Shown here piece after piece: positions 39,478 to 39,565 of a DNA stretch of 64,000 nucleotides; positions within the stretch are counted from its first letter, which is position 1, and every line of letters starts with the position of its first letter. This stretch comes from Escherichia coli (GTDB taxonomy: Bacteria; Pseudomonadota; Gammaproteobacteria; Enterobacterales; Enterobacteriaceae). The notes below the pieces were generated by a model, which did no database searches, had not been told where the DNA came from, and saw nothing but the letters and a program-made list of their open reading frames with translations. The DNA lies in the NCBI RefSeq assembly GCF_009931435.1, contig NZ_CP043414.1; one strand, written 5' to 3'. Made by a program: the position numbers and the translations under genes.

Positions 39478-39565
39478 GGGAAACCCTGTCTGAAAGTTAT
39501 AGTTAACCTACCCCATCCGTAGATGGGGGGATGTATGGGTACGTTGTAATTAGGGATTTAACGGA

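Follow-up and report, generated by a model that had tools for sequence, protein, structure and literature searches.

A conserved hairpin between ygbM and ygbN in the Escherichia coli ygbJKLMN operon as a candidate non-terminating nuclease barrier

The ygbJKLMN operon of Escherichia coli carries genes for cytoplasmic enzymes followed by the gene of a membrane transporter, ygbN, and a short G+C-rich inverted repeat lies in the non-coding gap just before the latter. Is this repeat a functional RNA structure or a hairpin of the kind that chance supplies, and if it is functional, does it act on transcription, on translation or on the stability of the message? We analyzed these questions in a 64,000-nt stretch of E. 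coli DNA, here referred to as the window, together with the corresponding junctions of related genomes and plasmids and with published expression data.

The ygbM-ygbN gap and its predicted structures

In the window, the operon ygbJKLMN (ltnD-otnK-otnC-ygbM-ygbN) lies on the minus strand, with ygbI alongside in the cluster. The initial annotation had placed an 88-bp gap between the co-oriented genes ygbM and ygbN, and this was confirmed: the gap covers 39478-39565 and both genes are on the minus strand. The features of the junction, in the order of the transcript, are listed below.

39566..40342, minus strand: ygbM (otnI family, 2-oxo-tetronate isomerase-like, xylose-isomerase-like TIM barrel), the upstream cistron, a 258-aa ORF
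39530..39565, minus strand, gap positions 1-36: variable 5' spacer, which tolerates substitutions, indels and insertions
39478..39529, minus strand, gap positions 37-88: conserved 52-nt block, consisting of the hairpin HP1 and the 33-nt ygbN leader
39511..39528, minus strand: HP1, in the mRNA CCCCAUC (39528-39522), loop UACG (39521-39518) and GAUGGGG (39517-39511)
39494..39509, minus strand: HP2, a weak predicted hairpin (AGGUUA-ACUA-UAACUU) directly after HP1, present in the MFE and centroid structures
39473..39490, minus strand: HP3, a tentative local helix of the predicted fold (GACAGGG-UUU-CCC(A)UGUC)
38113..39477, minus strand: ygbN (GntP-family permease), the downstream cistron, a 454-aa ORF

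The YgbM protein matches Pfam AP_endonuc_2 (PF01261, E 2.5e-49) and the YgbN protein matches GntP_permease (PF02447, E 1.7e-154). Both identities agree with the RefSeq annotation of near-identical E. coli loci. The window strain is an E. coli other than K-12, and the closest complete RefSeq genome is 99.3% identical over 301 nt. By kind, the YgbM protein belongs with the hydroxypyruvate/2-oxo-tetronate isomerases. In thousands of genomes, the NCBI product name for ygbM is "HPr family phosphocarrier protein", which is misleading in view of the PF01261 TIM barrel.

HP1 is a perfect 7-bp stem with a 4-nt loop and five G-C pairs, occupies gap positions 38-55 in the mRNA sense and has a predicted folding energy (dG) of about -13.7 kcal/mol. 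The repeat had first been described as ccccatc cgta gatgggg at 39511-39528, and these letters match exactly on the plus strand. Since ygbM and ygbN are on the minus strand, however, the transcript carries their reverse complement, and the mRNA has to be read as CCCCAUC-UACG-GAUGGGG. The loop, cUACGg, is thus an UNCG-type tetraloop closed by a C-G pair. The 3' end of HP1 lies 33 nt before the ygbN AUG, and its estimated place in MG1655 is about position 2865067 of U00096.3. A TAG triplet in frame with ygbN is read directly after the hairpin (39508-39510), so that an N-terminal extension of ygbN into the hairpin is ruled out. The 37 nt before the stem are C-rich and G-poor (13 C, 2 G), and the linker between hairpin and ygbN has an A/U content of 0.53-0.67.

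The fold of a 76-nt block scored z = -2.5. HP3 covers the Shine-Dalgarno-like AGGG of ygbN (39484-39487) as well as its AUG (39475-39477). In the comparison described in the next section, HP2 pairs in 89% of cells, the unpaired cells being in divergent sequences, while HP3 pairs in 86% of cells, has no compensatory change and is broken in divergent sequences. This comparative support is too weak, and neither HP2 nor HP3 is claimed here as a conserved structure.

Several other elements were searched for in the gap. An Rfam scan of 38000-44000 at E <= 10 returned nothing there, and a promoter and terminator scan of its mRNA strand gave no sigma-70-like promoter and no terminator. The hexamer TATAAC at gap positions 65-70 has, by eye, no usable -35, for which reason an internal ygbN promoter was provisionally set aside. 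No U-tract is found 3' of the HP1 stem, where the tail reads UAGGUUAAC and the terminator scan makes no call. The motif ACGGAUG resembles part of the CsrA consensus, but a CsrA site was dropped on inspection by eye, because the GGA is in the stem rather than the loop and the motif is absent from divergent lineages. No description of the gap was found in the papers searched.

Beyond its 3' end, ygbN faces a UbiD-family decarboxylase gene (36400-37827, plus strand) and a 78-aa gene (37838-38074, plus strand), both within 36183-38074 of the window. K-12 differs from the window strain at this place, as its ygbN directly faces rpoS; the decarboxylase cluster fits the known polymorphism of the mutS-rpoS region. 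A 12-bp hairpin, AAAAAGGTCCGATGGGCATCGGACCTTTTA (38076-38106, -17.1 kcal/mol), with an A-run and a T-run on its flanks, sits between the 3' ends of ygbN and of the convergent decarboxylase cluster, and from its sequence it looks like a bidirectional terminator.

Conservation and compensatory change in the hairpin

We considered first how much of HP1 could be expected by chance. In its 31-nt context, HP1 scored z = -2.0 and 7 of 200 shuffles folded equally well. The whole 88-nt gap scored z = -0.45 against shuffles, and among 31-nt segments of the same strand, 0.96% folded at least as well, that is, about one locus per 700 nt. Thermodynamic significance alone was therefore rejected as evidence for HP1, and a reader scanning many gaps would meet hairpins of this strength by chance. 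Perfect 7-bp stems with 3-8-nt loops numbered 66 in the window, where 24 were expected, and CRISPR repeats account for 19 of the 66. At 22925-24050 the window contains a CRISPR array, apparently of E. coli type I-E, whose repeat GTGTTCCCCGCGCCAGCGGGGATAAACCG recurs every 61 bp.

The locus is present, once each, in 4591 of 5426 complete E. coli genomes, and in 4417 of these 4591 the gap is at least 99% identical. HP1 is a single-copy element: the gap maps to a median of one place in each of the 4591 genomes, and a search of the window that allowed up to 3 mismatches gave one match. We compared K-12, 536, Esc18, 181.1, NR329, E. albertii, E. marmotae and Escherichia sp. E10V10, and found the substitutions confined to gap positions 2, 4, 5, 7, 13, 26 and 33, with a lone exception outside the spacer: E. 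marmotae has a U/C change 3 nt ahead of the AUG. Between E. albertii and E. coli, the 52-nt block has 0/52 changes and the 5' spacer 5/36, at a third-codon divergence of 19% in ygbM and 36% in ygbN (binomial P 4e-4 to 1e-5 for the block).

A more distant copy is found on plasmids. A complete ltnD-otnK-otnC-ygbM-ygbN cluster, whose YgbN is 92% identical, is carried by conjugative IncF plasmids in Citrobacter, Enterobacter and Klebsiella. In one such copy, L088 (NZ_OW967264.1), the block has 3/52 changes at a third-codon divergence of 43% in ygbM (binomial P = 1.5e-9), a rate no higher than that of codon positions 1 and 2 (8% divergence). The stem is unchanged in L088, and one of the three changes turns the loop UACG into UCCG, affecting only the free N of UNCG. 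To judge from these patterns of substitution, the block of hairpin and leader is under purifying selection.

Mobile elements have also reached this locus. The plasmid-borne ygb cluster adjoins an integrase and ccdAB. On the NDM plasmid L089 (NZ_CP022350.1), ygbN is without its first residues; the annotation shows no ygb genes before it, and a copy of ISSen4 is located about 900 nt upstream. The same 5-residue truncation of ygbN is seen in about 60 other plasmid matches. In strain VL40 (L002), IS1 is inserted in the gap spacer just 5' of the C-run, and in strain OkiPb01711 (L084), a Mu-like prophage (Mom/Com genes) lies 2 nt 3' of HP1, severing the hairpin from ygbN. The gap insertions of VL40 and OkiPb01711 are two independent events.

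With E. coli YgbN as the query of a protein search, the matches were confined to E. coli variants of at least 99% identity. More distant relatives were found through a search with the Entomohabitans YgbN and through contig look-ups, and about 16 ygbM-ygbN junctions were compared. In all relatives reached, an AP_endonuc_2 gene immediately precedes the GntP gene. We aligned the final 58 nt of the gap together with the ATG, by MAFFT without gaps, for seven sequences (E. coli, E. albertii, E. marmotae, the plasmid copy L088, L094, L093 and L097), and the hairpin falls in the same columns in all seven. The divergent stem-loops are given below beside that of E. coli.

E. coli: CCCCAUC-UACG-GAUGGGG
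L094: CCUCAUC-UCAC-GGUGAGG
L093: (G)CCCUGUG-UUCG-CACAGGG(C)
L097: CCCUGUC-GGAU-GACCGGG

Standard pairs are formed in 48 of the 49 stem cells of the seven in-register sequences, and the remaining cell is a U.C mismatch in L097. Double compensatory changes occur in four of the seven pairs, each in at least one sequence, and one stem pair shifts from U-A to U.G. When the partners were slid by 1-3 columns as a control, 35-57% of cells paired. No shuffle reaches the observed covariation score, a signal that rests on three divergent sequences. The loop is UNCG in Escherichia (cUACGg), L088 (cUCCGg) and L093 (UUCG, closed by a G-C pair with G on the 5' side), but UCAC in L094 and GGAU in L097, so the tetraloop is favoured, not required.

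The position of the hairpin is kept beyond the alignable sequences. In Entomohabitans (L005, L092, L098), hairpins of unrelated sequence also end 33 nt before the ygbN AUG, and the distance from the end of the core stem to the AUG is 27-29 nt in L095, 30 nt in Serratia ureilytica and 30 nt in Gallibacterium salpingitidis. Counted from the ygbM stop, the hairpin is reached after 23 to about 170 nt, depending on the lineage. No U-tract follows the stem in any lineage of this 27-33-nt class. In Pantoea sp. A4 and Actinobacillus, the hairpin is positioned elsewhere in the gap: in Pantoea (L006) it is followed by the U-rich stretch CUGUUUGU, and Actinobacillus (L018) has a second, terminator-like hairpin and then a T-run, about 22 nt before the ATG. 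No stable hairpin was found between the adjacent ygbM and ygbN of the K. pneumoniae plasmid L090 (57-nt gap) and the Salmonella plasmid L091 (56-nt gap), which means that the element is not needed in every context. If a gene other than ygbN comes after ygbM, there is either a gap of 18-39 nt without a hairpin or a canonical terminator.

In most lineages, the best hairpin of the gap is stronger than those of its dinucleotide shuffles, with a Fisher combined P of 3e-7 that includes both hairpin-negative lineages. Moreover, through G.U pairs, the sense strand folds as stably as the antisense strand or more so in most lineages (-20.4 vs -11.5 in L095, -10.0 vs -7.0 in L094 and -9.6 vs -6.6 in Entomohabitans), which points to selection on the mRNA and not on duplex DNA. 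The 223-nt gap of L092 (1278-1500) and L098 (111-333) contains a short remnant, ATGCA(C/A)ATCATCATCACCGGCGGGGGCGGCTGA, of an NAD-epimerase-like gene. Salmonella diarizonae and Pasteurellaceae have this gene next to ygbM, on its downstream side, and the remnant suggests a past gene loss at the ygbM-ygbN junction.

Block conservation, compensatory changes and kept position, taken together, place HP1 beyond chance on comparative evidence. They show that HP1 is a real RNA structure, which compensating mutations have preserved on the mRNA strand.

Operon expression and the function of the hairpin

What the structure may do can be judged in part from the expression of the operon. Gao 2021 (PMC8464067) reported a single YgbI ChIP-exo site, between ygbI and ygbJ, the derepression of all five genes ygbJKLMN in a ygbI deletion, and three transcription units, ygbJK, ygbLM and ygbN. 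From the base means and log2 fold changes in Dataset S6 of PMC8464067, we derived the read densities listed below, which are gene-level values from one K-12 data set.

ygbJ: base mean 842, log2 fold change 5.55, derived density per nt 1.81
ygbK: base mean 927, log2 fold change 5.15, derived density per nt 1.55
ygbL: base mean 284, log2 fold change 5.09, derived density per nt 0.86
ygbM: base mean 306, log2 fold change 4.62, derived density per nt 0.76
ygbN: base mean 176, log2 fold change 3.95, derived density per nt 0.24

The gene ygbN is derepressed 15-fold together with ygbJKLM, and its co-derepression from the YgbI-controlled region implies substantial read-through, so HP1 is probably not an efficient terminator. 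The step from ygbM to ygbN in the ygbI knockout is 0.32x, a 3.1-fold fall and the largest in the operon, and, as a gene-level density step, it would suit partial loss by any mechanism and does not identify its cause: ordinary polarity, Rho-dependent termination in which the hairpin has no part, or quicker turnover of the poorly translated message of a membrane protein could equally well produce it. The data of Gao 2021 fit a single YgbI-controlled ygbJKLMN transcript that is shaped after transcription.

A smaller fall is found earlier in the operon. In K-12 (L001, 1438-2696), otnK (ygbK) encodes 388 aa and ends 91 nt before ygbL, and in the window strain (40982-42244) it encodes 420 aa and overlaps ygbL by 4 nt. 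At the K-12-specific untranslated otnK-ygbL junction, the density in the ygbI-knockout RNA-seq falls to 0.56x, which may reflect polarity.

Transcript-end and start data were searched for the gap as well. The E. coli Term-seq tables of Adams 2021, from conditions under which the operon is repressed, list only the rpoS terminator near ygbN, and none of their 3' ends falls in the gap. Nothing was found in the Cappable-seq and Guzman 2019 data, and the ygb genes are not listed in the tables of Dar and Sorek 2018 (PLoS Genet, PMC5927463).

The explanation that we favour, though tentatively and at somewhat less than even confidence, is that HP1 is a non-terminating nuclease barrier of the malE-malF type, which helps to set the amount of transporter message against that of enzyme message. 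It is favoured because the upstream segment has the higher read density and no U-tract is present, and because the stem is unusually stable with a preference for UNCG loops, 3' protective hairpins being the commonest class of such elements genome-wide in E. coli (PMC5927463, PMC6061677). In the initial annotation, the hairpin had been proposed as an mRNA processing or stability element, or alternatively as a partial attenuator. The former proposal gains indirect support from the compensatory changes, the G.U pairs that form on the mRNA strand only, the purifying selection and the 0.32x step.

According to this explanation, HP1 would be carried within the polycistronic ygbJKLMN mRNA at the 5' edge of the ygbN ribosome-binding region. 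RNA polymerase would read through it and the barrier would act after transcription. Some transcripts would be broken downstream, either by an endonuclease cut (e.g. by RNase E) in the A/U-rich, weakly translated ygbN leader or, alternatively, by Rho-dependent termination in or beyond this leader. PNPase and RNase II would then trim from 3' to 5' and presumably halt at the UNCG-capped stem, leaving a putative 3' end there. The enzyme segment ygbJKLM would outlive the ygbN segment, and transporter mRNA would settle at roughly one third of enzyme mRNA, with the hairpin as the presumed cause.

The following observations speak against a malE-malF-type barrier. First, the hairpin keeps 27-33 nt from the ygbN start, a constancy for which a 3' protector of ygbM has no need, and a function linked to ygbN would explain more directly the combination of a variable distance to ygbM and a fixed distance to ygbN. 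Second, conservation spans the full 33-nt leader, which a bare nuclease barrier leaves unexplained. Third, L090 and L091 are without a stable hairpin.

The strongest alternative takes up the first of these points. As in papBA, RNase E would cut the G-poor spacer and leave HP1 at or near a new 5' end of the ygbN message, where HP1 and the ribosome would shield it from 5'-end-dependent RNase E, so that the transporter segment rather than the enzyme segment is stabilised. The hairpin is indeed anchored 27-33 nt from the ygbN start in most lineages, while the G-poor and unstructured spacer upstream varies freely in length and sequence. The footprint of the 30S subunit reaches to about -35, and with a stem that ends at -34 the ribosome would directly adjoin the hairpin, no bare RNA being exposed in between. 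Such a 5'-cap mechanism has been described by Dar and Sorek (PMC5927463), with the structure just downstream of the cut in 7/10 operons. Two findings oppose it: ygbN is the least abundant segment, as measured by lowest read density, which is not a half-life, and no RN|WUU match lies upstream of HP1 in E. coli, the matches being only downstream at gap positions 71 and 83, although this motif evidence is weak, since matches are scattered uninformatively in all lineages. On balance, we consider a 5' cap unlikely, yet a serious candidate.

The same fixed spacing to the AUG would be expected if HP1 belonged to a translation-initiation module, in which it bounds a single-stranded standby region on the 5' side and shields the ribosome-binding site of ygbN from the variable sequence that precedes it. 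For example, it could lock the CCCCCC run away from the AGGG Shine-Dalgarno sequence. Translation of the transporter would thereby be held at a set rate. An A/U-rich linker (0.53-0.67) is present, the 33-nt leader is conserved like non-synonymous sites (3/52 in the L088 block vs 8% at codon positions 1 and 2), and the predicted HP3 over the Shine-Dalgarno sequence and AUG suggests a tuned, weak start site. However, HP2 and HP3 are without compensatory support, the 5' arms are not anti-Shine-Dalgarno-like in divergent lineages, and a UNCG-capped stem suits a pure stability hairpin equally well, which leaves such a module rather improbable.

Transcriptional attenuation, in which HP1 pauses or partly terminates the polymerase, alone or with Rho loading on the C-rich spacer, is in our view doubtful. 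The 3.1-fold fall in read density across the gap, the untranslated C-rich and G-poor spacer (13 C, 2 G in 37 nt), the terminator-like second hairpin with its T-run in Actinobacillus (L018) and the U-rich CUGUUUGU in Pantoea (L006) would all be in keeping with it. Nevertheless, the terminator scan makes no call, ygbN is derepressed 15-fold from the upstream promoter region, the C residues of the spacer are not conserved even in E. albertii, and Dar and Sorek (PMC5927463) found Rho termination not significant at comparable hairpins. As for the partial attenuator proposed initially, its classical intrinsic form is disfavoured, given that neither E. coli nor the 27-33-nt class has a U-tract.

A more specialized proposal is that HP1 and the near-invariant 33-nt leader form a dedicated cis-regulatory RNA module that controls ygbN translation independently of the enzymes. 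It could serve as a binding platform for a protein or small RNA, or it could switch conformation, with the C-run paired either to the G-run in the stem or to the Shine-Dalgarno sequence. Such a module would account for a leader that is held as constant as non-synonymous sites, but we regard it as quite unlikely.

Finally, two explanations appear very improbable. In the first, a dimeric regulator would bind the inverted repeat in the DNA, which would then serve as operator or roadblock before ygbN. The perfect 7+7 repeat and the flanks conserved in Escherichia and the plasmid copy would agree with this, but the arms turn over yet stay complementary, G.U pairs become A.C mismatches on the other strand, the only YgbI ChIP-exo site is at ygbI/ygbJ (PMC8464067), and the mRNA strand of the gap has no promoter-like hexamers. 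Similarly remote is a chance hairpin without function: equal-energy hairpins about once per 700 nt, a gap no more structured than shuffles and two lineages without hairpin would allow it, and against it stand the compensatory changes, the strand asymmetry, the block conservation (P down to 1.5e-9) and the reappearance of a hairpin at this position on independent sequence backgrounds.

Relation to known elements and significance

Compared with known systems, HP1 most resembles the 3' protective hairpins of operons whose segments decay at different rates, as known from malE-malF and from the E. coli-wide survey by Dar and Sorek 2018 (PMC5927463). Like these, it is a stable stem-loop without a U-tract in a read-through polycistronic mRNA and is conserved in related species; it lies at a boundary where gene-level counts put the upstream genes above the downstream one. 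There are also differences, since the structures in PMC5927463 are mostly inside the downstream CDS while HP1 is intergenic at a fixed distance to the next start codon, and the malE-malF element is a multi-copy REP while HP1 is single-copy. With papBA, HP1 shares an intercistronic hairpin just upstream of the distal cistron with unstructured RNA before it, but in papBA the downstream segment is stable and abundant and here ygbN has the lowest read density. Stem-loops without a U-rich tail that are proposed to stop PNPase and RNase II are energetically stable, as is HP1; they mark the ends of transcription units, whereas transcription continues from HP1 into ygbN.

Other classes share single properties. 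Intrinsic terminators and attenuators also have a G+C-rich hairpin in a non-coding gap, but intrinsic terminators need a U-tract, and HP1, which has none and beyond which ygbN is co-derepressed 15-fold, was rejected as one by the U-tract test. The REP/BIME elements are likewise extragenic palindromes between operon genes and possible exonuclease blocks, but they are multi-copy; HP1, with a single copy per genome, a length of only 18 nt and no match to an Rfam or repeat family, was rejected as a REP/BIME repeat by the multi-copy test. Extra-stable tetraloop hairpins of the C(UUCG)G type were reportedly described by Tuerk and colleagues in 1988 in intercistronic regions, such as those of phage T4. 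The HP1 family has in common with them the UNCG loops (in Escherichia, the plasmid copy and L093) and the intercistronic location, but the L094 and L097 loops are not UNCG.

The class of protective intercistronic hairpins is already well known, and HP1 is best taken as a further, comparatively well-supported case. Its practical importance is modest: the class is familiar, the operon, which serves L-threonate/D-erythronate catabolism, is silent in standard laboratory conditions, and the mechanism is inferred. For annotation, the choice is between the three units of Gao 2021 (PMC8464067) and one ygbJKLMN transcript that is shaped post-transcriptionally. If the favoured explanation is true, HP1 would be a clean, single-copy and intergenic example of its class, documented by compensatory evolution rather than by the transcriptome of one strain, and the operon would use it to lower the dose of the membrane transporter relative to the cytoplasmic enzymes without a second promoter or terminator.
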